22,786 nt of DNA. Origin: a virus (taxonomy: Duplodnaviria; Heunggongvirae; Uroviricota; Caudoviricetes). Position 1 is the first letter of the stretch, and every line of letters begins with the position of its first letter. The position numbers and the translations under genes are program-made. The notes below the pieces were generated by a model, which had not been told where the DNA came from, searched no databases, and saw nothing but the letters and a program-made list of their open reading frames with translations. The stretch is taken from IMG/VR virus record IMGVR_UViG_2547132415_000008, positions 1 through 22,786 of that record. One strand, written 5' to 3'. This document shows positions 1,975-22,079 of the stretch, piece after piece.

Positions 1975-2224
1975 AGTTATCCCACCAGACAGCGAAACGA
2001 TGAACGGGATTTTTGCAGAGATTGAACGTAAATATGCGCATCAGCCGTTGCGCCAAAAGTTATCGATGAAATGCAACGCGAAGCGGCGCGCCTTGTACGG
2101 CGAGCGACAAACACGAAGGTTACGTTCGTTCGGGACTGACATTACAGAAGCTCCTTTGATAAGGGGCTTCGATAATGTCACTAAGAGGAAAAATTCATGG
2201 CAAAACCGGACTGGGAGGCCATAG
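1955..2224 (+). CDS. Hypothetical small protein between lysis and packaging modules (weak call)
   Basis: ORF 1928..2224 in the track starts at TTG; in-frame ATGs at 1955 and 2000. No good ribosome-binding site; overlaps the Rz1 end and the terS start. May be non-coding. Confidence 0.2.
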   Translation: MARLNVEVIPPDSETMNGIFAEIERKYAHQPLRQKLSMKCNAKRRALYGERQTRRLRSFGTDITEAPLIRGFDNVTKRKNSWQNRTGRP

Positions 2225-2946
2225 AATCGGCATACCGGGCCGGAGTCCTTAGCCTCCGTGATATAGGCGAGAAATACGGCGTAACAGAAGGGGCTATCAG
2301 GAAGAGGGCTAAAAAGCTTGGTTGGGTACGCAGTGGCGGTACGCAGGTTTGCAAAAATGGTACGCAAAAAAGAAAAGTGCGTACCAGCAGAAAGCCTGCC
2401 ATTACTGGCCTTACACAAAAAGGTACGCAACCAAAAACAGAAGCTACACCGGATACGAAACCGATACGCGGAATGCGTACCGATCCCCCGACTAACCCAT
2501 TCCAACCCGGTAACCAGCAGGCATTAAAACACGGTGGTTATGCCCGTCGCCTTCTGCTCAAAGATGAGGTGATAGAGGACGCTAAAGCGTTGACGCTCGA
2601 GGACGAATTATTTCGCCTTCGTGCTAACAACCTTGTCGCTGCAGAGAATATTGGTCGGTGGCTGGTGTCGCTGGAAGATGCTAATGGGGACCAGGAAAGG
2701 AAGATGCTGATGGAAAATATCAGCGCCGCCGAGAAAGCAATGATGCGCAATACAGTTCGTATTGAGTCCATCGTTGGCACGCTTGCGACGGTAGGAAAAA
2801 TATTTGCTGATACAGCCTACCGCAAGGCCGCCACTGATAAGGTGTCTCTGGAGGCTGATCGTCTTCGCCGTGATGCAGGTATTGATGATGGCAATGGAGA
2901 GCGTGACCTCAATGACTTCTACTCTGACATCCAAACCGACGCTTAA
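2197..2946 (+). CDS. Terminase small subunit (N-terminal helix-turn-helix DNA-binding domain)
   Basis: Strong RBS AGAGGA 7 nt upstream of ATG 2197, with an in-frame stop just before it. N-terminal LSLRDIGEKYGVTEGAIRKRAKKLGW is HTH-like. Located directly upstream of the large terminase. Confidence 0.8.
   Translation: MAKPDWEAIESAYRAGVLSLRDIGEKYGVTEGAIRKRAKKLGWVRSGGTQVCKNGTQKRKVRTSRKPAITGLTQKGTQPKTEATPDTKPIRGMRTDPPTNPFQPGNQQALKHGGYARRLLLKDEVIEDAKALTLEDELFRLRANNLVAAENIGRWLVSLEDANGDQERKMLMENISAAEKAMMRNTVRIESIVGTLATVGKIFADTAYRKAATDKVSLEADRLRRDAGIDDGNGERDLNDFYSDIQTDA
2325..2481. repeat. Cluster of six copies of the 8-bp motif GGTACGCA / TGCGTACC inside the small terminase gene; candidate pac or terminase recognition site
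   Basis: Read directly: GGTACGCA at 2325, 2338, 2359 and 2422; reverse complement TGCGTACC at 2378 and 2474. Encodes a repeated GTQ-containing basic linker. Confidence 0.5.
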
Positions 2947-4315
2947 TCCGGCTTTACGTAGTTTCTGGACTACGCGGGCACGTAACAAAGTGCTTTATGG
3001 TGGCCGGTCATCGTCAAAATCATGGGATGCCGCTGGCATTGCCATATTTCTGTCGAATAAATACACTCTGCGTTTTTGTTGTGCCCGTCAGATCCAGAAC
3101 AAAATCGAAGAGTCGGTGTATACCCTGCTCAAAATTCAGATAGACAGGTTTGGCCTGCGGCACCGTTTCCGTATTCTGAACAACAAAATCATTAACCGGG
3201 TTACTGGCTCGGAATTTGTTTTTTATGGATTATGGCGCAACATCGAAGAAATTAAGTCACTGGAGGGGATCGATGTGTTGTGGCTGGAAGAAGCCCACGC
3301 ACTGACGGAATACCAGTGGAAAATTCTGGAGCCAACGATCCGTAAAGAGGGGTCGGAATGCTGGTTCATATTCAACCCCGGACTTGTTACTGATTTCGTC
3401 TGGCGCAACTTCGTTGTTGATCCGCCCGAAGGCACTCTCATCCGCAAAATTAACTATGACGAAAATCCGTTTCTGTCTGACACCATGCTTAAGGTTATCG
3501 ACGCGGCGCGACGCCGTGATCCGGATGGTTTTAAACATGTGTATGAGGGCGTTCCGGAGTCTGATGATGATGCGGCAATCATCAAACTGTCCTGGATAGA
3601 AGCCGCAGTGGATGCGCACAAAACGTTAAATTTCGAACCCAGTGGAAGAAAGCGTATTGGCTTTGACGTGGCTGACAGTGGTACAGATAAGTGCGCTAAC
3701 GTTTACCGTCACGGATCCGTTGTTTTCTGGGCCGACGAATGGAAGGCCAAAGAAGATGAATTACTGAAGAGCTGCCAGCGTACTTATCAGGCGGCGCTGG
3801 AGCGTGAAGCAGATATTGTTTACGACTCTATCGGTGTTGGTGCGTCTGCCGGTGCTAAATTCTCTGAAATTAACGCTGACCGGAAGAGCGAGAATGCATA
3901 CGCGAGACGAGTGAATTACCAGAGGTTTAACGCCGGTGCTGGTGTGCATGAGCCAGATGACGAATACAACGGCATCCCCAACAAAGACTTTTTCGCAAAT
4001 CTTAAGGCTCAGGCATGGTGGCTGGTGGCTGACCGTTTCAGAAATACGTTTAACGCCATTAACAACGGAGAACAGTATCCTGTGGATGAGCTGATCAGCA
4101 TAGATTCTAGTTGTCCGTTGCTTGAAAAGCTGAAACTGGAACTGACAACACCTCATCGCGATTTTGACCGTAACGGACGTGTGATGGTCGAAAGTAAAAA
4201 AGACCTCGCAAAACGCGAGATACCGTCACCAAACGTTGCTGACGCATTCATTATGGCCTTCGCGCCAATTGATACATCGCTGGATATCTGGGAACAGCTG
4301 GGGAGACAGGCCTGA
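2894..4315 (+). CDS. Terminase large subunit (ATPase plus nuclease)
   Basis: Walker A-like YGGRSSSKSWD near the N-terminus; acidic nuclease-type motifs downstream; size about 470 aa. Start uncertain (ATG 2894 or 2912; the track ORF begins at 2804), overlapping the terS 3' end. Stop overlaps the portal start (TGATG). Confidence 0.85.
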   Translation: MESVTSMTSTLTSKPTLNPALRSFWTTRARNKVLYGGRSSSKSWDAAGIAIFLSNKYTLRFCCARQIQNKIEESVYTLLKIQIDRFGLRHRFRILNNKIINRVTGSEFVFYGLWRNIEEIKSLEGIDVLWLEEAHALTEYQWKILEPTIRKEGSECWFIFNPGLVTDFVWRNFVVDPPEGTLIRKINYDENPFLSDTMLKVIDAARRRDPDGFKHVYEGVPESDDDAAIIKLSWIEAAVDAHKTLNFEPSGRKRIGFDVADSGTDKCANVYRHGSVVFWADEWKAKEDELLKSCQRTYQAALEREADIVYDSIGVGASAGAKFSEINADRKSENAYARRVNYQRFNAGAGVHEPDDEYNGIPNKDFFANLKAQAWWLVADRFRNTFNAINNGEQYPVDELISIDSSCPLLEKLKLELTTPHRDFDRNGRVMVESKKDLAKREIPSPNVADAFIMAFAPIDTSLDIWEQLGRQA

Positions 4316-11207: not shown

Positions 11208-12353
11208 ATGGCACAGGGCTTGCCTGTATCAAACGTTGTTAATGTTGATGTGATCATGTCGCCGCGTGCAGCATCAGGGCGAAATTTTGGTGCATTACTC
11301 ATTCTCGGCCCGTCCACAATCATTCCGGTAAGTGAGCGCATTCGTCGTTATTCTGCCGCGGAAGATATTGGAAAAGATTTTGGCGTGGAATCACCAGAAT
11401 ATAAGGCTGCGCAGGTGTTTTTCTCACAATCACCGAAACCTCAGGAGGTTTTTGTTGGTCGTTGGGTGAAAACGAAGGGAGACAGCGAACAGGCCACGCC
11501 TGAGACGCTGGAGCAGGCTGTGAATGCCATGCTCGATTATACTTCATGGTATGGGCTGGGGATTGCAGACGATGCAGATATTCCGGATGCAGACTGGCTG
11601 AAAGTGGCTGCGGCGATTGAATCCTCTTCTGTAAGCCGTATTCTGGCGATTACGACAAGCGATGAGAAATGCCTGCAGACTGCATCCAGCGATGATTTGG
11701 CATCAAAACTGAAAACCGCCGGATATTCACGCAGTTTTATTCAATATTCATCGGGTAATAAATACGCTGCGTTATCTGCATTTGGCCTGGCATTCACGGT
11801 TAATTTCAATGGCAGTAATACCGCGATTACGCTCAAGTTTAAGCAGGAGCCGGGTGTCGGGTATGAAACACTGACAGTCAGCCAGGCATCGGCACTTGAT
11901 GCAAAAAACTGCAATGTATTCGTGTACTACCAGAATGATACGGCTATCCTCCAGCAGGGAGTGATGGCTAACGGCGATTTCTTTGATGAACGCCACGGCC
12001 TGGACTGGTTACAGAATTATGTGCAGACCAACCTCTATAACCTGCTTTATACCAGCACCACGAAAGTTCCCCAGACTGAAGCCGGTATTACCCGACTGTT
12101 ATCAAATGTAGAAAAATCACTGGATCAGGCCGTTCAGAATGGACTGATTGCTCCGGGCGTATGGAACGGTGGCGACCTTGGTCAGTTGTCATCAGGTGAC
12201 ACGCTGCCCAAAGGTTATTACGTATACGCCCAGCCGCTGGATGAACAGGCACAATCAGAACGTGAAGCCCGTAAGGCTCCGGTGATTCAGGCTGCAATAA
12301 AACTTGCAGGCGCGGTTCATTACGCTGACGTACAGATTAACGTTGTTCGCTAA
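11208..12353 (+). CDS. Tail sheath protein (contractile tail)
   Basis: 381 aa with RBS GGAGA upstream, followed directly by a 146-aa tube-like gene, a chaperone with frameshift, and a tape measure gene: canonical myovirus order. Confidence 0.7.
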
Positions 12354-12363
12354 GGGGAAGTGA

Positions 12364-12804
12364 ATGTCTACCTATTCTTTTATGGATGTCACTGCGACGC
12401 TGACCGGGCCGACCGGTTCGATTGACCTCGGGTACGGTTCGGCAAGTTCTGAAGAGGGGATTGTGGTTGCGATGGGCGGTCCTAAAAACACCATGACCAT
12501 CGGTGCTGATGGCGAAGTGATGCACAGCCTCCATGCAGATAAAAGCGGGACGATTACCGTTAACCTTCTGAAGACATCACCGACAAATAAAAAATTGTCG
12601 CTGGCGTATAACGCACAGAGCCAGTCTTCTGCCACATGGGGGAATAACGTTATCGTGATCCGCAACAAGGTCAGCGGCGACATCATCACGGCACGCAGTG
12701 TTGCGTTCCAGAAACAACCGGATAACGCCAACGCTAAAACCGGTAATACGATGCCGTGGGTGTTTGACTGCGGCAAGATTGACCAGGTTCTCGGGGAGTT
12801 TTAA
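12364..12804 (+). CDS. Tail tube protein
   Basis: 146 aa, RBS GGGGAAG upstream, between sheath and chaperone genes. Confidence 0.65.
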   Translation: MSTYSFMDVTATLTGPTGSIDLGYGSASSEEGIVVAMGGPKNTMTIGADGEVMHSLHADKSGTITVNLLKTSPTNKKLSLAYNAQSQSSATWGNNVIVIRNKVSGDIITARSVAFQKQPDNANAKTGNTMPWVFDCGKIDQVLGEF

Positions 12805-12807
12805 TAC

Positions 12808-13260
12808 ATGGAATTCGAAATTAAAGGCGTGAAATATCGCGCGGCAAAACTCAGCGTTTTTGACCAGCTGAAAGTGACCCGTAAACTTCTGCCGGTACTG
12901 GCGGGAATGATGTCAGATTTCGGGAGCATTCGCTCCCGTTTGCCTGCTGACGGCAAAATCGACACCGTGAAATTCGAGCAGTTAAAACCGGTGTTTGAAA
13001 CCATGCTCCCGCGTATCGCTGAGGAACTGTCTTCCCTGACCGAAGATGACACCGATGCGATTATTCATCCCTGTCTTGCGGTGGTATCGCGGCGTCATAT
13101 GGACGGATGGGTGCCGGTATTTACCCATGGCGAACTGATGTTTGATGATATTGACTTGCTGGTCATGCTTCATCTGGTGGCGCGGGTGGTCGCCGATTCG
13201 CTGGGAAATTTTTTGCCTACACCCCTTACCAGCACGACGCAGAGCCTGCAACAGGGCTGA
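12808..13260 (+). CDS. Tail assembly chaperone (short form)
   Basis: 150 aa immediately upstream of the tape measure gene; slippery heptamer T TTT TTG near its 3' end; RBS GGGGAG upstream. Confidence 0.65.
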   Translation: MEFEIKGVKYRAAKLSVFDQLKVTRKLLPVLAGMMSDFGSIRSRLPADGKIDTVKFEQLKPVFETMLPRIAEELSSLTEDDTDAIIHPCLAVVSRRHMDGWVPVFTHGELMFDDIDLLVMLHLVARVVADSLGNFLPTPLTSTTQSLQQG

Positions 13261-13457
13261 CGTTTAACAGCCTGCCGGACGGGCTGTCCTACCTTCTCAA
13301 TCCGGTTGACGCCGGGTTAATTCCTTATACAGCACTTAAAGATGGCTCTGTCGATTTGTACGACATTGCTCTCTTAAATGACCATCTGGCGGTAAAAGCG
13401 GATAACCAGCGGCGCATTGAGAAATGGAGAGAGGATAATGAACGCCGAGACTATTAA
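13215..13457 (+). CDS. -1 frameshift extension of the tail assembly chaperone (long form, G-T-like product), 81 codons with no ATG
   Basis: The -1 frame is open from 13215 to TAA at 13455..13457 (AYTPYQHDAEPATGLTFNSLPDGLSYLLNPVDAGLIPYTALKDGSVDLYDIALLNDHLAVKADNQRRIEKWREDNERRDY) and is entered at T TTT TTG (13209..13215). Confidence 0.6.
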   Translation, partial: AYTPYQHDAEPATGLTFNSLPDGLSYLLNPVDAGLIPYTALKDGSVDLYDIALLNDHLAVKADNQRRIEKWREDNERRDY

Positions 13458-15426
13458 AGATTTCCTCGTCTCGCTTGGCTTCAGTGTGGATGATGCAGGA
13501 GCGAAAAAATTCGGTTCTGTCCTCGCCGGTACAACTGCAAATGTCATCAAAATGGGGCTGGCCGTCGAAGGAGCTGCGCTGTCCGTGGTGGCCTTCACGG
13601 CTAAGATCGCCTCCGGTCTGGATAATCTTTACTGGGCGTCACAGCGCACCGGCGCGACAGTCCAGGGAATTCAGTCTATTGGCTATGCGGTTTCGCAGGT
13701 TGGCGGCAGCGTGGACGCTGCGCGATCTTCTCTGGAAAACCTCTCCCGGTTTATTCGTAATAATCCCGGGGCGGAGGGATTTCTGAATCGCCTGGGCGTA
13801 CAGACCCGTGATGCCAGCGGTAACATGCGTGACATGGCCGCTATCTTTACGGGCGTTGGACAGAAACTCAGCAGCATGCCGTATTACCGGGCTAACCAGT
13901 ATGCGCAGATGCTGGGCATTGACGAAAATACCCTTATGGCGATGCGCCGGGGTGTGGGTGGCTTCTCCGGGCAGTACAGCGCAATGGCGAAAGCTATCGG
14001 CTTCAATGCTGACGAGGCGGCCAGAAGCTCCAACAAATTTATGACCTCCCTGCGTGAGTTTAGCGCGATGGCAGGCATGGCCCGTGACAAAATCGGCTCT
14101 AATCTTGCGGGTGGGCTTGCAGGTTCGCTGGACACCCTGCGCCGCCATATCCTGGACAACTTCCCTCGTATCGAGCAGACCCTGACGAAAGCCATAAAAG
14201 GCATTCTGGCGCTCGGGGATATTATCGGGCGGCTGTTCTTCAGACTGATTGAGGGGACATCAGGCCTTATCACCTGGTGGCAATCGCTGGATAAGCAAAC
14301 GCGGGAGTTGATCTCGCTGTTTGGCGCACTGACGATTGCGCTGCGCATTCTGAACAGTACGTTCTGGATGTCGCCGGTTGGCCTCATTACCGCGCTGGCG
14401 GCGGGGATTGCCCTCCTGTGGGAGGACTATCAGACCTGGAAGGAAGGCGGCGACAGCCTGATTGACTGGGGCAAGTGGAAACCGGAGGTCGATGCCGCGC
14501 TGAAGATGGTTCGTGACCTTAAAACGACCGTTAACGACCTGGCGAAAGCGCTGGCGAAACTACTCAATATTGACCCCAAATCATGGTCCCTGAAGTGGGA
14601 TTTCAGCAACTTCATCGACCAGATGGGCGAATTCAGCAAAATGCTGAACATGATCGCCGACCTGCTCAACGCTATCAAAGATGGCCGCTGGGCTGATGCC
14701 GTCAGCATCGGCAAACAGATACTTAATCAGGGCAGCGAAAATCCGTCAGCGATGCCGATGGTTACAGACAGCGCTAACAGTACTGCCGACTGGATTAAAG
14801 AGCACTGGGGATTCGATCCCCGCAGTGTGGGCCGGACGGTACGCGGCTGGTTTGGTGATGATGAGCCGGAACAACATGCACAGGCTACGAAACGAGGAGA
14901 ACGGAATAACAATCCGGGAAACCTTAATTTTGCTGGTCAGGCGGGGGCTTCTCTTGAACGCCCGGGCGGGCGATTTGCCAGATTCGAAACTGCCTTTGAT
15001 GGATTACGGGCTCTTGCTCGTCAGTTAATGTTGTACGCCGGACGGGGAATAAACAGCGTGGAGAAAATTGTCTCTACCTGGGCGCCTGCGTCTGATAATA
15101 ACAACACAACTGCGTATATCAGGGCTGTATCGCAACGACTGGGAGTGGATCCCCGGGCTGCCCTGAATATGAGCGATCCGCAAACCATGTCAGCATTGAT
15201 GAGCAGCATTATCCAGCATGAGAATGGAAGAAATATCTATTCCCGAGAGCTGATTAATAAGGCTGCCGTGGCGGGAATTAGTGGCAAAGTGACAGAGGTT
15301 AACCAGCAAAATACCTACCACATTTACGGTGGCGGAGATCCGCACGCTGTCGGTAATGAGGTTGCACGTCGGCAACAGTCTGCAAATGCTCAGGTCATGC
15401 GAAGTAATCAGGTGAGGGTGGGTTAG
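13438..15426 (+). CDS. Tail tape measure protein
   Basis: ATG 13438 preceded by GGAGAGAGG (the track ORF starts at 13417). 663 aa; a long Ala/Leu/Gly-rich helical protein downstream of the frameshifted chaperone; hydrophobic central segment; distinct C-terminal domain. Confidence 0.75.
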   Translation: MNAETIKDFLVSLGFSVDDAGAKKFGSVLAGTTANVIKMGLAVEGAALSVVAFTAKIASGLDNLYWASQRTGATVQGIQSIGYAVSQVGGSVDAARSSLENLSRFIRNNPGAEGFLNRLGVQTRDASGNMRDMAAIFTGVGQKLSSMPYYRANQYAQMLGIDENTLMAMRRGVGGFSGQYSAMAKAIGFNADEAARSSNKFMTSLREFSAMAGMARDKIGSNLAGGLAGSLDTLRRHILDNFPRIEQTLTKAIKGILALGDIIGRLFFRLIEGTSGLITWWQSLDKQTRELISLFGALTIALRILNSTFWMSPVGLITALAAGIALLWEDYQTWKEGGDSLIDWGKWKPEVDAALKMVRDLKTTVNDLAKALAKLLNIDPKSWSLKWDFSNFIDQMGEFSKMLNMIADLLNAIKDGRWADAVSIGKQILNQGSENPSAMPMVTDSANSTADWIKEHWGFDPRSVGRTVRGWFGDDEPEQHAQATKRGERNNNPGNLNFAGQAGASLERPGGRFARFETAFDGLRALARQLMLYAGRGINSVEKIVSTWAPASDNNNTTAYIRAVSQRLGVDPRAALNMSDPQTMSALMSSIIQHENGRNIYSRELINKAAVAGISGKVTEVNQQNTYHIYGGGDPHAVGNEVARRQQSANAQVMRSNQVRVG

Positions 15427-16013
15427 TGGATATTCTCTCTACACTTTTTCATCAGCAGAGCAGAAAAATAGGAATGATTGTTCCCAGTGTTGTTATTTCA
15501 GAGAAGCATACAGATATGCTTGAAATAACCGAGCATCCGGTAGAGGTCGGGGCCGCTGTCGCTGATCATGCCTATAAAAAACCGTCAGAAGTGGTGATGG
15601 AGGTTGGTTTCGCCGGTGGCGGCGCATTGCTGGATTTTGCCAGTAACCTGACGGCTACCAGCCTGCTCGGCCTGAGTCCTCAGCAGACGTATCAGGAGCT
15701 ACTGGATCTGCAGGAAAGCCGTATCCCCTTCGATGTGGTAACCGGTAAACGGCTGTACAGCAACATGTTGATCCGGGCGCTGGAAGTGACGACGGACAAG
15801 ACAACCGAAAACGTCCTGTCCGCCGTCCTCACCCTGAGGGAGGTCATTATCTCCCGGACACAGCAGATTACCGTCGCGGATAAAACCAACATGAAGGAAG
15901 GGGCCAGCACGTCGGCGGTACAGAACAGCGGCAACAAAACCACAAAACCTCCAGATACTTCACTGCTGAAAAGCATCACGGGTAACGTGGCGTCATTACT
16001 GGGGGGCGGCTAA
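15426..16013 (+). CDS. Tail/baseplate-associated protein (hypothetical), probable GTG start
   Basis: GTG at 15426 overlaps the tape measure stop (TAGTG) with GAGGGTGGG upstream; 195 aa. An alternative ATG at 15474 has no spacer after its RBS. Confidence 0.45.
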   Translation: MDILSTLFHQQSRKIGMIVPSVVISEKHTDMLEITEHPVEVGAAVADHAYKKPSEVVMEVGFAGGGALLDFASNLTATSLLGLSPQQTYQELLDLQESRIPFDVVTGKRLYSNMLIRALEVTTDKTTENVLSAVLTLREVIISRTQQITVADKTNMKEGASTSAVQNSGNKTTKPPDTSLLKSITGNVASLLGGG

Positions 16014-16315
16014 TGACAATTCAGGAAATTCCGCTGACAGCGGACAACCAGCAGTTCAGCATCGTCCTGGGTGGTGTCACCTGGCGGATTAGCATCATAT
16101 GGCGCGATCTGTACTGGATTATGGACCTGCAGAACGACAGAGGGGAGCCGGTAATCTCCGGTATTCCTCTCGTCACTGGTGCTGACCTGCTGGCGCAGTA
16201 CGCCTGTATGGGGCTTGGTTTTAAGCTGGTGGTGGTCTGTGATGACAACACACAGGATTACCCCACAAAAACTGACCTGGGCGGTCGCAGCCATTTACTG
16301 GTATCAACGGAGTAA
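16013..16315 (+). CDS. Small tail/baseplate protein (hypothetical)
   Basis: 100 aa; start overlaps previous stop (TAATG). Confidence 0.45.
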   Translation: MTIQEIPLTADNQQFSIVLGGVTWRISIIWRDLYWIMDLQNDRGEPVISGIPLVTGADLLAQYACMGLGFKLVVVCDDNTQDYPTKTDLGGRSHLLVSTE

Positions 16316-16317
16316 GC

Positions 16318-17379
16318 ATGTCACAGAACTGGATGAGACATTTCGAGCTGCAGCTTGTGGACGGGAACGGTCAGGGAATTGAGCTAAGTGATTTTAAAGT
16401 CACCTTTACGATCGACTGGTTCAACATCAGCAGCGCGTCCCGGGTAGGGACTATCAAAATTTATAACCTCTCGGCAGATACTGTGAACCGAATCACCGGG
16501 CAGGAGTTTTCGAAAGTGCGTCTGATTGCCGGTTACGACGGTATCGCGCCGGAGGTGTCGGCAAGCGACGTCGGGACCGTGCGGGAAGTTGACGCGGCGG
16601 ACGTGGGTCAGAGTGATGGCCGCAACTACGGACTGATTTTCAGCGGTGAAATTCGCTACTCGGTCACAGGAAAAGACAGTCCGGTTGATTCCTACGTCCT
16701 GATTCAGGCAGCAGATACTGATCTGGCTTTTGCCACCAGTATAACCTCACAGACGCTGGCTGCCGGTTACACGGTCGCTGATGTAAACCGTGCGCTGATG
16801 AAAGACTTCGAAGCCAAAGGCGCGACCGAAGGCCTGACGCCTGAAATGCCTGCTACTGTATTCCCCCGGGGGCGGGTACTCTTTGGCATGACGCGGCATC
16901 TAATGGATAACGTAGCCGGGCAATGTGGCGCAACATGGCAATTCGTGGACGGTCAGCGCCAGATGGTGGCGAATAACGAATATGTTCATGAAGCGATTGT
17001 GCTCAACAGCGCTACCGGGCTTATTGGCATGCCGCAGCAGACTATCGGTAACGGCGTAAACGTCCGCGCGCTTATTAATCCGAACATCCGGGTTAACGGA
17101 CTTATTCAGCTGGATCAGGCTTCCGTGTATCGTACCGCCTTGTCGAACAACGATATTGCGATGGCTGGTGGTCAGATCACCGACCAGAACACGGATGGAA
17201 ATATCACGCTAAGCGGCACCACATCGCAGCCTGCCAGCATCGCAACGGATGGCGTTTATATTGTGCGCGGGATTATGTACACTGGCGACACAAGGGGCCA
17301 GGCGTGGTACATGGATATGATGTGCGAAGCGCGTGGCGCGGCGGATCTGTATACGCGATCGGCTTTGCAAAGGGGATGA
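16318..17379 (+). CDS. Baseplate hub / tail protein (hypothetical)
   Basis: 353 aa; RBS GGAG upstream; position after tape measure and small tail proteins. Confidence 0.5.
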   Translation: MSQNWMRHFELQLVDGNGQGIELSDFKVTFTIDWFNISSASRVGTIKIYNLSADTVNRITGQEFSKVRLIAGYDGIAPEVSASDVGTVREVDAADVGQSDGRNYGLIFSGEIRYSVTGKDSPVDSYVLIQAADTDLAFATSITSQTLAAGYTVADVNRALMKDFEAKGATEGLTPEMPATVFPRGRVLFGMTRHLMDNVAGQCGATWQFVDGQRQMVANNEYVHEAIVLNSATGLIGMPQQTIGNGVNVRALINPNIRVNGLIQLDQASVYRTALSNNDIAMAGGQITDQNTDGNITLSGTTSQPASIATDGVYIVRGIMYTGDTRGQAWYMDMMCEARGAADLYTRSALQRG

Positions 17380-17382
17380 GCA

Positions 17383-17724
17383 ATGAGGGGTATTATTTTT
17401 CTGTTAGCTGTCTTTTCTGCGTGCAGCGCGTGGGCGGATGGCTTCACGGTTAAATGCGGTGGCTACACTATGGTTGCAAACCAGGGCGAGTTATCGACTA
17501 TCAACGGTGAAAGAGTTACCTCTCAAAAAATCACCGAACTGGGTACCAATGGTTTGAAAGTAGACATGGGGCTTATGCCTGCCAAAGACGGTAACAACTA
17601 CGGCTTTGAATACATTCGTCGCCCTGGTACCGAAACGCGATTCCTGAATATCCAGCTTCTGCAGAACAGCATGGATGCGCCGAAAATCATCGGATCTTTC
17701 CCTTGTAAAAAAGTGGCTGGGTGA
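17383..17724 (+). CDS. Small secreted protein or lipoprotein with N-terminal signal peptide (moron candidate)
   Basis: 113 aa; MRGIIFLLAVFSACSAWADG has a hydrophobic core, a lipobox-like FSAC and an AWA-DG signal peptidase I site. Two further Cys in the mature part. Not expected for a virion tail component. Confidence 0.6.
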   Translation: MRGIIFLLAVFSACSAWADGFTVKCGGYTMVANQGELSTINGERVTSQKITELGTNGLKVDMGLMPAKDGNNYGFEYIRRPGTETRFLNIQLLQNSMDAPKIIGSFPCKKVAG

Positions 17725-17750
17725 AGGTAACCTGAAATTCGTAACGCCTG

Positions 17751-17789
17751 AAAAACAACAAAATGTGCTCTAAAAACTGTTGTTTTTTG
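17751..17789 (+). terminator. AT-rich hairpin with T-run, weak candidate terminator upstream of the cassette
   Basis: AAAAACAACA (17751..17760) pairs with TGTTGTTTTT (17778..17787); loop is 17 nt; T-run follows. Weak. Confidence 0.3.
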
Positions 17790-17809
17790 AGACGAGCGAT
17801 TACACTGCA

Positions 17810-17850
17810 CTGACTTTTTGATGGTGGATTGCCATCGATATGCTACTTCA
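17810..17850 (+). promoter_or_regulatory. Possible cassette promoter (TTGATG -35-like at 17818..17823, TATGCT -10-like at 17839..17844)
   Basis: Hexamers read by eye; spacing is 15 bp, which is suboptimal. Low confidence. Confidence 0.2.
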
Positions 17851-17873
17851 TTAAAGCCAGGAATAACTAAAAC

Positions 17874-18605
17874 ATGAGTTTAGCGCAGCCAAAATCAGGA
17901 GAACTGTTAGATCTTCTGACTCCTTCATTAACTAAGGGTGAAAACCTTCTGAGTGAGTTTGAAATCCATCGAATCATTCGTGAAGCGAAGAAACTACCTG
18001 AACGTTATCAGGGGCTATCAATTGAAGGCTTAGCTAAGCTTGTTCTTGGTGAAATAGATGAAGGATGTTCACTCTGTGAGCGGGGGTTGAGAATAGCGCC
18101 TAACGATCCAGTTTCTTTTTGTAACTATACGATTGCGCTGCGTAACTTAGGTTTGCATGCTCGCCAGTATGTGATGATTCAGAAAGCATCTGATTCACTT
18201 AATCCAACGATATTGGCTGAGGTTGCTACAATTTCTGCATACTGGGTTGATATCGATTTGCTTGAAAAGGTGATGCCGATGCTAACTGCAATGGAAGTAC
18301 CGCGCCCTGAAGATATGGGCAAATGGTATGACACGCTCAATTATCTGCATACCCAAAAAGATCATGCTCAGGAGCTAAAAACTATTGGGCGGCTCATGAT
18401 GAACGTTGCAGAAAAGTACCGCGCTCGTCTTGCTGGCGCTCATGCTTTTTATGTAATGTCAGAACTTGATACGCTGTTCGTTGAAGTCAAAACAGACGAT
18501 CCAGTGCTTCTTTCGCAGATGAATAATGCCTTGGCTGATGAGATTATTATTGCGGGGCTTGCGGATTCAGAATGCGTCGGATGCTTTGAAGCCGGGGAAC
18601 TCTAA
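17874..18605 (+). CDS. Cassette gene A: uncharacterised 243-aa protein, helical, TPR-like segment and two CxxC motifs
   Basis: ATG 17874 with AGGAATAA upstream. Lower GC than flanking tail genes by eye. CSLC near residue 64 and CVGC near residue 232; segment GLRIAPNDPVSFCNYTIALRNLGLHARQYVMIQKA looks TPR-like. Stop overlaps gene B start (TAATG). Confidence 0.7.
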   Translation: MSLAQPKSGELLDLLTPSLTKGENLLSEFEIHRIIREAKKLPERYQGLSIEGLAKLVLGEIDEGCSLCERGLRIAPNDPVSFCNYTIALRNLGLHARQYVMIQKASDSLNPTILAEVATISAYWVDIDLLEKVMPMLTAMEVPRPEDMGKWYDTLNYLHTQKDHAQELKTIGRLMMNVAEKYRARLAGAHAFYVMSELDTLFVEVKTDDPVLLSQMNNALADEIIIAGLADSECVGCFEAGEL

Positions 18606-19033
18606 TGTCGGTTGAGCATACCTGTTTTCTTGAATTGGCTAAGCATTCCCTGGCTCTAAACGGTGAGATGTGGACGAGAAATGCTATTAGCCGAGCATAC
18701 TATGGTATGTACCATTCCGCCTTACGGATCACCAACAATCTGGTACCGACCGCTACACAAGATGGTGAAAAACTAAAAGGTGGAGTTCACATGCGAGTCT
18801 ATACGGCCTTTTGTAGTGGTGAGGCAGCTGCACTTAACGATGTTGATGTTAACGCAGTAAAGAAAATCGGCGTTAAACTGAAAATGACGCATGCCCAACG
18901 TGTTAATTCTGATTACAAGCTTGAGCGGAAAATCAACCGGATTACCGCGAGAAGTGTAATTCTGGATGCGGAAGAGGTCGATGCAATCGTTAATCAATTA
19001 CTGAAGATTGGTGATGACTCGTTAACTGCATAA
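18605..19033 (+). CDS. Cassette gene B: uncharacterised 142-aa protein with HEPN-like R-x6-H motif (RAYYGMYH)
   Basis: Translationally coupled to gene A; low GC by eye; followed 22 nt later by a strong intrinsic terminator. Motif RAYYGMYHSALRI resembles the HEPN helix signature from memory; unverified. Confidence 0.7.
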   Translation: MSVEHTCFLELAKHSLALNGEMWTRNAISRAYYGMYHSALRITNNLVPTATQDGEKLKGGVHMRVYTAFCSGEAAALNDVDVNAVKKIGVKLKMTHAQRVNSDYKLERKINRITARSVILDAEEVDAIVNQLLKIGDDSLTA

Positions 19034-19054
19034 GCTGAAATTTCTCAAAATTCA

Positions 19055-19078
19055 AACCCGCCACTTGGCGGGTTTTTT
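19055..19078 (+). terminator. Rho-independent terminator closing the cassette
   Basis: AACCCGCC (19055..19062), loop ACTT, GGCGGGTT (19067..19074): 8-bp GC-rich stem followed by TTTT. Confidence 0.8.
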
Positions 19079-19097
19079 GCTTTCTGGAGCCTACTAA

Positions 19098-19850
19098 ATG
19101 GCAGTATCTGACCAGACCCGCAGCGGCGACCTTGCCGAAACATTTAAATCTGAACGGGAAACAACAAAGAACCAGATCCGTGTCGCCTTGCCTGGCATTA
19201 TTCAGTCATTCGATCCTGACGCGGTGACGGCGGTTGTGCAGCCAGCTATCCGGTCAGTTGAAAAGGATAACGACGGTAACCGCATTACCAAAAATTACCC
19301 ATTGCTGGTGGATGTGCCAGTGGTATTCCCGCGCGGCGGAGGCTGTACGTTGACTTTTCCGGTAAAAGCTGGGGATGAGTGTCTTGTCGTTTTTGCCGAT
19401 CGTTGTATTGATTTCTGGTGGCAGAGCGGCGGGATACAGGAGACGGTTGATGACAGAATGCATGATTTATCGGATGCGTTTTGTATTGTCGGTCCCCAGT
19501 CGCAGGCTAGGAAGATTAGCGGTATTAATACCAGTGCCACACAGTTGCGTAGTGACGACGGCAGCACCTATTTTGAGCTTAATCCTGATACCAGGAAAAT
19601 TAAAATTGTCGCTCCGGGGGGGCTTGATGTGGTTGCCCCCCTGGCTGATTTTTCTGAGAAAGTAACCATTCATGGCCTGTTAACCTGGATGGGGGGCATG
19701 GTGGGGTCTGTGGTTTCTGGTGTGGCTTCAAAAATCACTGGTGCTGTTGAGTTTTTGGGGAGCGTGAAGGCTAACGGCAAGCCAATCGATGATACGCACA
19801 CTCATGGCGGTGTTCAGCGCGGTGGAAGCAATACCGATGGGGTAAACTGA
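19098..19850 (+). CDS. Baseplate central spike / assembly protein (gpV-like)
   Basis: 250 aa; RBS GGAG 8 nt upstream; followed by coupled baseplate wedge genes; Gly-rich C-terminus. Confidence 0.55.
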   Translation: MAVSDQTRSGDLAETFKSERETTKNQIRVALPGIIQSFDPDAVTAVVQPAIRSVEKDNDGNRITKNYPLLVDVPVVFPRGGGCTLTFPVKAGDECLVVFADRCIDFWWQSGGIQETVDDRMHDLSDAFCIVGPQSQARKISGINTSATQLRSDDGSTYFELNPDTRKIKIVAPGGLDVVAPLADFSEKVTIHGLLTWMGGMVGSVVSGVASKITGAVEFLGSVKANGKPIDDTHTHGGVQRGGSNTDGVN

Positions 19851-20203
19851 TGCGATACAGACGTGAAGACGCCGATGGCGATTACACCTTTGGCAGCGGT
19901 GATGACACCTGGCTGATTAACTCACCGGAGGCCGTGGCGCAGGCGGTAAAAACGCGATTCGAATTGTGGTATGGGCAATGGTTTCTCGACACCACCGAGG
20001 GGACTCCGTGGATCCAGTCCGTACTCGGTAAGCAGAAGCCGGAAACCTACAACCTGGCGATCCGTAAGCGCATCCTCGAAACGCGGGGCGTTAAATCAAT
20101 CCTCTCTTTCAATACGACAGTGGATACCACGACCCGACGTGTCATGTTTTCCGCTGAAATCGACACTCTTTATGGAATAACGACTGTTACATCGGAGGCG
20201 TAA
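19850..20203 (+). CDS. Baseplate wedge protein (gpW / gp25-like)
   Basis: 117 aa; start overlaps previous stop (TGATG); size and position typical of the small baseplate wedge subunit preceding a J-like gene. Confidence 0.55.
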   Translation: MRYRREDADGDYTFGSGDDTWLINSPEAVAQAVKTRFELWYGQWFLDTTEGTPWIQSVLGKQKPETYNLAIRKRILETRGVKSILSFNTTVDTTTRRVMFSAEIDTLYGITTVTSEA

Positions 20204-21402
20204 TGGCTCTGAACCTTGATTCTCTCGGTTTATCTGCAAAGGTAACCGCGGAGGGGATCAGTGCGCCTGATTATCAGACGATACTCAGCACCCTGATTGG
20301 CTATTTTCAGCAGATTTATGGCAGTGATGCCTACCTCGAACCGGACAGCAAAGACGGCCAGATGGTGGCTCTGATGGCGCTGGCGATTCATGATGCCAAT
20401 AATATGGCGATAACTGTCTACAACTGTTTTTCACCGGCAACCGGCTATGGGGCTGCACTGACCAGTAACGTGAAAATAAATGGTATTTCACGTAAAGGCG
20501 CAACGAATTCTACGGTTGATTTGCTTCTTACAGGAACTGCCGGAACAACCATCATTAATGGCAGCGTGAAAGACAGTAATAATGTGATATGGCGTTTGCC
20601 TGCTTCAGTGGTGGTCGGCGTGGATGGTACAGTGATGGCGACCGCAACATGTTCCGTCAGTGGTGCAGTGGCGGCGCTGGCTGGAACTATCACTGAAATT
20701 AATACGCCAACCCGTGGCTGGGTTTCGGTAACTAATCCTGCTGCGGCTACTGTGGGCACTCCGGCAGAAACTGACGCTGAGTTACGTATCCGCCAGTCGC
20801 AAAGTGTTGCGTTGCCATCAATAACCCCATTTGAAGCACTGGATGGTGCTGTTTCTAATGTTACCGGTGTAACCCGCCACAAACTCTATGAAAACGATAC
20901 TGGTTCGGAGGACGGTAACGGGTTACCGCCACACTCTGTTGCTGTAATTGTGGATGGCGGTGATGTGACGGATATTGCTCAGGCTATCAGAGGGAATAAA
21001 GGCCAGGGGACAGCCACTCACGGTACAACATCCGTTACGGTTCCGGATAAATACGGCAATCCCCATGTAATCAAATTCTCGCGTTCCAGTGATGTACCTG
21101 TTTATGCCCGGATTAAATTAAAAGTTTTTACGGGTTATACCTCACAGATAGGGCAGCAGATCCAGCAGGCTATTTCCGACTATATCAATAGTCTGATGAT
21201 TGGTGATTCGGTCCTTTTAAGTCGCATTTACTCACCGGCGAATCTTGGCGTGGTGAGTGGCGGGAATGCACGCTATTACGATATTCAGGAACTGACGATT
21301 GGGAAATCCCCGGGGGCTTTGTCGTCATCAAACATTGATATCAGATACAACGAATCTGCGTCCTGTACCCCGGAAAATATCGTTATAACGGTGGAGTCAT
21401 GA
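20203..21402 (+). CDS. Baseplate J-like protein
   Basis: 399 aa; coupled start (TAATG); size and position between the W-like gene and the tail-fibre-proximal gene. Confidence 0.65.
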   Translation: MALNLDSLGLSAKVTAEGISAPDYQTILSTLIGYFQQIYGSDAYLEPDSKDGQMVALMALAIHDANNMAITVYNCFSPATGYGAALTSNVKINGISRKGATNSTVDLLLTGTAGTTIINGSVKDSNNVIWRLPASVVVGVDGTVMATATCSVSGAVAALAGTITEINTPTRGWVSVTNPAAATVGTPAETDAELRIRQSQSVALPSITPFEALDGAVSNVTGVTRHKLYENDTGSEDGNGLPPHSVAVIVDGGDVTDIAQAIRGNKGQGTATHGTTSVTVPDKYGNPHVIKFSRSSDVPVYARIKLKVFTGYTSQIGQQIQQAISDYINSLMIGDSVLLSRIYSPANLGVVSGGNARYYDIQELTIGKSPGALSSSNIDIRYNESASCTPENIVITVES

Positions 21403-22079
21403 GCAAATATACCGAACTAATCACGAACTACCACGCCACCAAACCTAAATTTCTTGCACATGTTGATCTGATGACCCGGCCGCTTATTGATGTTGCGGCG
21501 GCCACCAGAGGGCTGATTACTGCATTTGATATTGACTCTGCGGTTGGTGTGCAACTTGACATTCTGGGATTGTGGATCGGACGTAGCCGTGTTGTCAGCC
21601 AGCCTATCTCAGGTGTCTATTTCAGCTGGGATACCGACGGGCTTGGATATGATCAGGGTGTATGGCATGGGCCATACGATCCTGATTCCGGATACATGTA
21701 CCTCAGCGATGAAACTTATCGTGTCATCCTTAAAGCGAAGATTGCGATTAATAACTGGGACGGACGGAATGATTCGCTTCCAGCAATTCTTGACGCTGCA
21801 ACAGCAGGATCCGGGCTGCGAATGCAGATAGTCGATAACCAGGACATGACGATATCGGTCTGGGTCTTTCCTGATACTGATATTTCAGATGTATCGCGTG
21901 AGTTAATTGCGGCAATTAAACAGGGGTATCTAACAGTAAAAGCCGCCGGGGTATGGGCGGGGGGCATTGAAACACCTTCGGTGGAAACTCCATCTGAAGG
22001 CTCTAAATTTTTTGGTTTTGATATGGATAACGAATTCATCAGTGGTTTTGATGTAGGGGCATGGGGAGTATTACTCTGA
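21399..22079 (+). CDS. Baseplate / tail-fibre-attachment protein (gpI-like, hypothetical)
   Basis: 226 aa; ATGA overlap with the J-like gene; precedes the tail fibre gene. Confidence 0.5.

Follow-up and report, generated by a model that had tools for sequence, protein, structure and literature searches.

Where does packaging of the DNA begin in the prophage represented by the stretch IMGVR_UViG_2547132415_000008 (IMG/VR, Caudoviricetes, positions 1 to 22,786)? The whole stretch of 22,786 bp, termed the window, contains a small terminase gene (terS) in which copies of an 8-bp motif, GGTACGCA, are clustered, and the original prediction had named this cluster a candidate packaging (pac) site. 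The cluster is probably an array of recognition sites for the N-terminal helix-turn-helix (HTH) domain of the encoded protein TerS, which forms the pac site; a rough probability of 0.75 is given to this reading. Selection at the DNA level, a conserved position, co-variation with the recognition helix of TerS, the type of the large terminase (TerL) and the comparison with Erwinia phage 59 all back the candidate.

Motif copies within terS

An exact search of the window located six copies of GGTACGCA between positions 2325 and 2481, four direct and two inverted, in agreement with the six copies that had been read by eye in about 157 bp inside terS. A count over the whole sequence, proposed as a check with the original prediction, gave zero copies outside this interval. 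Dinucleotide-preserving shuffles (n = 100) contained the 8-mer 0.56 times on average and three times at most, and none of them reached six. The 7-mer core GTACGCA occurs seven times in the window, six of these inside the cluster, and the base composition predicts 0.019 core copies per 157 bp (Poisson P(≥ 6) ~7e-14). The closely related, near-complete E. coli prophage L096 (strain P4, 41.5 kb) has nine core copies, which are six in terS and three scattered singles. Neither the window nor the 41.5-kb prophage contains a second cluster, as expected of a unique recognition sequence.

The copies form two groups separated by a gap of 36 bp. The left group consists of sites 1 and 2, a decayed copy, site 3 and the inverted site 4 (terS nt 129, 142, 150 for the decayed copy, 163 and 182), and the right group of a second decayed copy, site 5 and the inverted site 6 (nt 226 and 278 for the intact ones). 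The array thereby covers terS nt 129-189 and 226-285, i.e., aa 43-95, and its coordinates in the window are given in Table 1. The decayed copies were recognized by alignment with relatives; allowing one mismatch to the 8-mer yielded no further sites in the cluster. Sites follow each other at about 8-21 bp (13, 8, 13, 19 and more) in mixed orientation, and Tandem Repeats Finder, applied to positions 2100-2700, reported no tandem array. A-rich runs follow sites 3 and 5 in the window. Among 113 distinct site contexts, G was found at position -1 in 82% and A was the commonest base 3' of the core, which gives the consensus GGTACGCA(A).

Table 1. Features of the terS-terL region, in coordinates of the window.
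Feature	Position	Strand	Basis and remarks
terS, small terminase, 249 aa	2197..2946	+	Open reading frame (ORF), translation; PHROG 370 'terminase small subunit', E 9e-95
N-terminal three-helix HTH, aa 1-45 (helices 6-15, 20-27, 31-41)	2197..2331	+	AlphaFold2; weak Pfam matches
Putative recognition helix EGAIRKRAKKL, aa 31-41	2287..2319	+	E31 and R35 co-vary with motif bases 5-6
Site 1, GGTACGCA	2325..2332	+	Read as W-V-R; exact search, translation
Disordered basic linker holding the array, about aa 46-104	2332..2508	+	AlphaFold2, pLDDT 30-39, no secondary structure
Site 2, GGTACGCA	2338..2345	+	Read as G-T-Q; exact search, translation
Decayed site, GGTTTGCA	2346..2353	+	Aligned to intact GGTACGCA of Klebsiella phage relatives
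Site 3, GGTACGCA	2359..2366	+	Read as G-T-Q; followed by an A-tract; exact search
Site 4, inverted, TGCGTACC on the + strand	2378..2385	-	Read as V-R-T; exact search
Decayed site, CTTACACA	2410..2417	+	Aligned to CGTACGCA of ST405-OXA48phi1.2 and Chronis
Site 5, GGTACGCA	2422..2429	+	Read as G-T-Q; exact search
Site 6, inverted, TGCGTACC on the + strand	2474..2481	-	Read as M-R-T; exact search
terL, large terminase	2912..4315	+	Pfam Terminase_3, E 4.5e-38; PDB 4idh (Sf6 gp2), E 7.5e-79

The copies are translated in two forward frames (W-V-R and G-T-Q) and in reverse (V-R-T or M-R-T). For codon resampling, the protein was kept fixed and synonymous codons were drawn from the codon usage of the window in 2000 resamples. 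Resampled terS contained GTACGCA 0.83 times on average and four times at most, and 0 of 2000 reached the observed six; five other motif-bearing terS genes gave a similar outcome. Taken together, the frames, the orientation and the resampling show that the motif is under selection as DNA: the constraint acts on the nucleotide sequence and not on the peptide.

Recognition helix, conservation and exchange of the terS 5' segment

The array coincides essentially with the segment of terS that encodes a disordered linker. In the full AlphaFold2 model, the N-terminal HTH had a predicted local distance difference test (pLDDT) score of 81-89 (mean 80.6 when the domain was modelled alone), aa 48-104 were disordered and long helices followed over aa 107-226. 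The composition of the linker (aa 43-104) is basic with 13 K+R versus 3 D+E. Pfam gave weak matches to Sigma70_r4 and HTH_AsnC over aa 17-41. Structural neighbours of the HTH-only model in Foldseek were almost all HTH DNA-binding domains, none of them significant; the full TerS model gave coiled-coil look-alikes only and nothing at E ≤ 0.001 against the PDB, and a phmmer search of TerS against the PDB returned nothing meaningful.

For 238 loci, the most frequent 7-mer within 240 nt downstream of the HTH was determined de novo, with no motif preset, and this word sorts cleanly by recognition helix. E31/R35 was paired with GTACGCA in 58 of 58 distinct N-terminal sequences, H/N at the same positions with GTATCCA in 45 of 46, and H/L with GTAACCA in 27 of 28. 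This rule is valid across unrelated C-terminal terS domains, with the sites at the same positions. Such concerted switches of helix and word carry the most weight in favour of the proposed reading, and two pairs of relatives illustrate them. Erwinia phage 59 (helix VTEGGIRKRAK) has GTACGCA at nt 178, 190 and 203 plus an inverted copy at nt 218, and Enterobacter phage BHUENT3, the terS of which is homologous to that of phage 59, has the helix VNHATILKRAN and GTAACCA at nt 175, 187 and 200 plus an inverted copy at nt 215; all four homologous sites show the identical two-base difference. Similarly, Pseudomonas phage USP_18 (THGAINKRAK) has GGTATCCA (core GTATCCA) at anchor nt 166, 181 and 193, and its relative L250 (TEGAIRKRAK) has GGTACGCA at exactly these positions, likewise SEN34; between USP_18 and L250 the peptide shifts along with the motif (V-S versus V-R).

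The word and the recognition helix change together among related phages, which makes it very probable that the copies are docking sites of the TerS HTH. The comparison suggests a code in which E/R, H/N and H/L at residues 31/35 would correspond to CG, TC and AC at site bases 5-6, and discrete words co-varying with helix residues imply direct base readout. The adjacent recognition helix appears as the obvious candidate reader, and that the HTH of TerS reads the GGTACGCA sites is considered highly likely. One part of the original prediction was not retained: it had emphasized the palindromic GTAC core of the motif, but the sister classes GTATCCA and GTAACCA lack GTAC and the site is asymmetric, best written as GGTAnnCA. 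Since the sister words share only this frame, the palindromy is incidental.

The words of the sister classes were located as GGTAACCA in BHUENT3 (L012:2174-2222) and GGTATCCA in USP_18 (L093, anchor nt 166-200). For FBPa19 (L095), the class word is probably GGTTCGC. Orimi01 (helix SHVSIHKRAK) had no clear repeated word, nor did a few further variants of the helix.

For closely related terS genes, the Klebsiella phages ST16-OXA48phi5.2, GZ7, ST512-KPC3phi13.5, ST405-OXA48phi1.2 and Chronis were aligned (~88% nt identity). They have 6-8 core copies in the same place and differ by indels of a 12-nt unit. A larger set consisted of 80 IMG/VR loci found with an N-terminal profile, each with ~4.4 kb of flank. 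All 80 have 4-9 copies at about terS nt 130-300 and almost none occur in the flanks; the set includes one extra isolated copy (nt 574, in one locus) and one truncated locus, the six copies of which were scored outside the ORF call.

SEN34 (Salmonella), HK639 (coliphage), ST11-VIM1phi8.1 (Klebsiella) and Erwinia phage 59 (vB_EhrS_59) have only the first ~45 TerS residues in common with the window, and each of them has 3-4 copies of GTACGCA directly after the HTH segment, joined to unrelated C-terminal domains. The reverse situation is seen in Klebsiella phage RothC, which combines a Chronis-like C-terminal domain with a different N-terminal domain and has zero copies of GTACGCA; at the equivalent linker position, its terS (L006:562-645) contains 5-6 TGCGAAT words including two TGCGAATTCGCA palindromes. 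In these comparisons, the motif travels with the HTH and not with the remainder of TerS.

Several observations concern the borders of the exchanged segments. The terS of Chronis (L005:1558-2298) is a natural chimera with a window-type HTH and array up to ~aa 92 (after KPIRG), followed by a RothC-type C-terminus (cf. L006:455-1195); the last inverted site is missing, and the joint marks the edge of the exchangeable recognition cassette. Further mosaic joints flank the terS start (2137-2236). Homology to the Klebsiella phages starts ~57-60 bp 5' of the terS ATG (query positions 238-241), and the lysis region of E. coli APEC37 matches until 40 nt into terS (window position 2236) and diverges beyond. 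The conserved 5' codons MAKPDWEAIE..AYRAG may act as a recombination linker between modules.

Homologues of this terS numbered 2231 at a threshold of E ≤ 1e-5, and the N-terminal profile alone matched 562 IMG/VR stretches. The family is common in Escherichia and Klebsiella prophages, and relatives of the HTH module are present in Salmonella, Erwinia and Pseudomonas phages. A contig-wide scan with the pattern GTACGCAN{1,9}GTACGCA was swamped by chance pairs and by unrelated tandem repeats of non-enteric genomes (HTH anchor at 1 of 120 loci only); it was uninformative on satellites and pseudo-pac sites and was discarded. One such repeat, a 14-bp tandem array with at least 15 copies containing GTACGCA in an uncultured Bacteroidetes contig (L306:5084-5314), is unrelated to terS.

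Packaging type and known packaging sites

TerL is 36% identical to gp2 of Shigella phage Sf6 over 458 residues (E 4e-86), and its best PDB match, 4idh (E 7.5e-79), is Sf6 gp2. The Walker-A motif GGRSSSKS that had been pointed out is present. Pfam assigned TerL to Terminase_3 and Terminase_3C only and not to the GpA family of the lambda type. Relatives of TerL include PB1-like Pseudomonas phages (54% identity). Sf6 is listed as a headful pac phage in a review (PMC9611059), and TerL of the window belongs to the headful clade by homology. Erwinia phage 59, which has the same cassette of HTH and GTACGCA words with a TerL of a different family (933W type), is described as experimentally headful (PMC7317114). 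Both results suit the headful packaging that the original prediction had considered. Its statement that no lambda-type cos sequence precedes terS was confirmed as well: with up to two mismatches, GGGCGGCGACCT matched the window only at 12167 and 19121 (two mismatches each), which is chance level and far from terS.

The start of terL was placed at 2912 as in the near-identical E. coli P4 prophage annotated in RefSeq, and the ORF is open from 2804. With this start, the last ~35 nt of terS (2912-2946) belong to terL as well; relatives are annotated with several terL starts. The record starts of virion-sequenced relatives (Mulock, RCIP0034/0098, PDP110P2, Erwinia phage 59 and HK639) lie near the start of terS or terL, look annotator-chosen and were not used; for Erwinia phage 59, PMC7317114 states explicitly that the record start was chosen in this way. 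The genome announcement of Mulock contains no packaging data.

Among known packaging sites, pac of P1 is the nearest analogue in layout. Its repeats, TGATCA/G hexamers described as 'seven hexanucleotide repeats' (PMC11260489), lie inside pacA and were located at pacA nt 194, 201, 213 and 228 and at nt 324, 336 and 347. Annotated cleavage sites (~nt 276-285) and an IHF site lie between the two groups, and an N-terminal HTH-like segment is encoded upstream of all of these. P1 and the window thus agree in having two groups of short words in the 5' third of the small terminase gene, after the HTH-coding region. They differ in the word, as GGTACGCA has no GATC and Dam control is therefore impossible. 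They also differ in the gap between the groups (36 bp versus ~90 bp in P1) and in TerL, which is Sf6-type in the window and not PacB. Unlike in P1, where an IHF site is annotated, the IHF consensus WATCAANNNNTTR had no match with up to one mismatch in 2150-2650, hence none between the groups. No homology of the window TerS to PacA was found by blastp (best E 0.30 over 12 aa).

In 933W/Sakai-type Stx phages, the terS of VT2-Sakai (L009:1636-1695, gene nt 136-195) contains four (C/T)GATCAT words at an exact spacing of 12 nt, which encode the peptide IDHEIDHKTDHEIDHD. The N-terminal domain before these words is weakly PacA-like (25% over 96 aa, pairwise E 0.011; P1 pacA, L258:6723-6883). The words look like a P1-style pac site with Dam sites in medically important phages.

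In its logic, the array comes closest to cosB of the lambda family. In lambda, 21 and N15, the repeated R sites of cosB are read by the N-terminal winged HTH of gpNu1, and packaging specificity classes with matched changes in helix and site exist. The members of this family package from cos, with a TerL of the GpA type and cosN next to the binding sites, whereas the window has a TerL of the Terminase_3/Sf6 type, no cos-like sequence near terS and its sites inside the terS coding sequence.

SPP1/SF6 (pacL/pacR, G1P) package by the headful mechanism. Their pac region is situated where the terS gene region begins (5' end), and their TerS is an oligomer, the peripheral HTHs of which touch the DNA at several places (PMC4737164; PMC9611059). 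Recognition of this type relies on weak HTH contacts to intrinsically bent DNA, and the HTHs are credited with little sequence specificity (PMC4737164), in contrast to the window with its conserved 8-bp words co-varying with the helix. The pac site of P22, a headful enterobacterial phage, is a single asymmetric 22-bp sequence within gene 3, inside terS (PMC9611059; PMC11260489), and has been altered by wobble mutation (PMC11260489). It differs from the window in array type (6-9 short sites in the window type), and the TerS of P22 is unrelated.

The gene order agrees with a pac location in terS at the start of the packaging and head operon. Downstream of terS follow the Terminase_3 TerL, a Phage_portal_3 (DUF1073) portal protein, a Mu-F-like head protein, a DUF2213 protein and the major capsid protein; lysozyme and spanin genes are located upstream. 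An ORF of 98 aa (1928-2224) abuts the terS start with overlap, matches PHROG 12811 (unknown function; E 4.6e-17, 36 residues only) and overlaps the region of an Rz-like spanin ORF. Positions 11208-22079 encode a myovirus-like tail module (DUF3383 sheath-like protein, tape measure protein with lytic transglycosylase, baseplate J/gp47 and DUF2612). In E. coli P4, the related prophage joins a tail module of this type to early and lysis genes of lambdoid character (Rac-like recET, Q antiterminator). A myovirus-like tail agrees with the published description of Klebsiella myophage Mulock.

Weighing of the proposed pac site

In the proposed mechanism, each copy of GGTACGCA would bind the N-terminal HTH of TerS, which is encoded directly upstream, and the sites together would make up that part of the pac site which is recognized. 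Like all solved phage TerS (PMC9611059), TerS presumably assembles into a ring by way of its long C-terminal helices, with each subunit carrying its HTH on a flexible basic tether of ~60 residues. Base-specific docking of several HTHs on 8-bp sites close to each other would label the concatemeric phage DNA and bring in the Sf6-type TerL for a first cut nearby, which would be followed by a headful packaging series. The A-rich stretches 3' of the sites may help DNA bending. That the sites are unevenly spaced and occur in both orientations agrees better with flexible tethers than with a rigid array. We infer TerS binding, the oligomeric state and stoichiometry, the cut position and the need of the array for packaging.

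A number of points weigh against this mechanism. Reviews (PMC9611059; PMC4737164) emphasize that the in vitro binding of pac DNA by TerS of known pac phages is weak and shows little sequence specificity, and base-specific docking at multiple sites would be unusual among the studied pac systems. The spacing of the sites shows no helical phasing. Among the top 50 Foldseek neighbours of the HTH-only model, none was significant and none is a terminase. The inverted copies give the mRNA a stable hairpin (z = -3.5). For the window phage and its close relatives, the pac function is deduced by comparison between sequences. Finally, the HTH segment and the array are less than 100 bp apart and are inherited together, and linkage alone gives some association. 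To the last point it can be replied that all copies switch to one new word, which therefore indicates one reader with changed specificity; linkage explains co-inheritance only.

If TerS does bind the array, it might do so for regulation, i.e., autoregulation of terS and terL or adjustment of late-operon dosage. The co-variation shows only that a factor with that helix reads the sites and not what follows from it, the sites are inside the terS-terL transcription unit, and a regulatory role of TerS has been suggested for SPP1-like phages (PMC4737164). We regard this explanation as unlikely. A scan for promoters and terminators found nothing in the array beyond chance, and no promoter-like site is present in or near it. 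The location in terS and the bipartite repeats match established pac sites such as that of P1. Moreover, the cassette occurs on several unrelated terS C-termini and the two TerL checked differ in family, which is better explained by a portable module for packaging recognition.

Alternatively, another protein, either a host nucleoid protein or a further phage protein, could read the sites, and the association with the terS HTH would then reflect linkage, as the HTH codons adjoin the array and recombine with it as one block. However, all copies track two residues of the predicted recognition helix, and the carriers of the cassette, which are otherwise mosaic and belong to phages of five genera (Escherichia, Klebsiella, Salmonella, Erwinia and Pseudomonas), have no other common protein that would be evident. 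An IHF consensus match is absent as well, and a reader other than TerS is judged quite improbable.

It is very unlikely that the function of the inverted copies is to form a hairpin, in mRNA or single-stranded DNA, which modulates translation of terS or terL. The RNA of positions 2315-2495 folds at -58.2 kcal/mol (z = -3.52) with a 9-bp GGUACGCA/UGCGUACC stem, and the comparison of Erwinia phage 59 with BHUENT3 shows compensatory changes in the inverted copy and the last direct one. Yet direct copies outnumber inverted ones (4-7 versus 1-2), and types such as SEN34, USP_18 and L250 have three direct copies and no inverted one in USP_18 and L250, with a partial GCGTAC 6-mer only in SEN34. The concerted change of unpaired direct copies would be left unexplained, and Rfam had no match at E ≤ 1. 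The hairpin fold is real, yet it is a necessary by-product of the inverted copies.

That the repeats only reflect a repetitive peptide (GTQ/VRK) or slipped-strand duplication, with no function of the DNA itself, would suit the 12-nt unit indels among relatives, which are duplications and losses of a unit, and the repetitive, low-complexity linker, but was rejected as extremely improbable due to the reading in two frames and in reverse, the expectation of 0.83 copies versus six observed, the negative Tandem Repeats Finder result and the presence of the motif in unrelated, non-repetitive protein contexts (SEN34, Erwinia phage 59).

An array of TerS recognition sites that forms the pac site thus remains the preferred reading. 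A more far-reaching proposal is that the 5' segment of terS, comprising the HTH and its own array of 8-bp targets, is a portable packaging-specificity cassette of ~300 bp, which is swapped onto unrelated oligomerisation domains and has a readable code. This is put forward tentatively, with about even chances of being wrong or somewhat more. The cassette is seen with two TerL families, namely the Sf6 type of the window and the 933W type of Erwinia phage 59.

A pac site with multiple repeats inside terS is of a known kind; new are the code from helix to site and the three natural classes. In the literature covered, which is incomplete so that an earlier description is possible, no description of the GGTACGCA array or of the pac site of this terS family was found, and searching the motif together with 'terminase' yielded primers and ribosome binding site tables only. 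Few pac sites are defined at all; that of ES18, for instance, is still unknown (PMC11260489). In the passages of PMC9611059 and PMC4737164 on this subject, the specificity of ring-shaped TerS is described as unresolved, with both the wrapping and the threading model failing to explain it.

The array is a promising model for sequence-specific pac recognition, and the three natural classes with matched changes in helix and site provide a clean experimental handle of two residues and two bases. Should the cassette reading be true, this would be the first pac system with base-specific docking of multiple HTHs that is predictable from sequence, and the disputed model of a ring of HTHs on an array of sites would become directly testable and potentially reprogrammable. 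With a defined pac site, packageable vectors could be designed, and the origin and direction of lateral or generalized transduction from these prophages could be predicted in clinical E. coli and Klebsiella.

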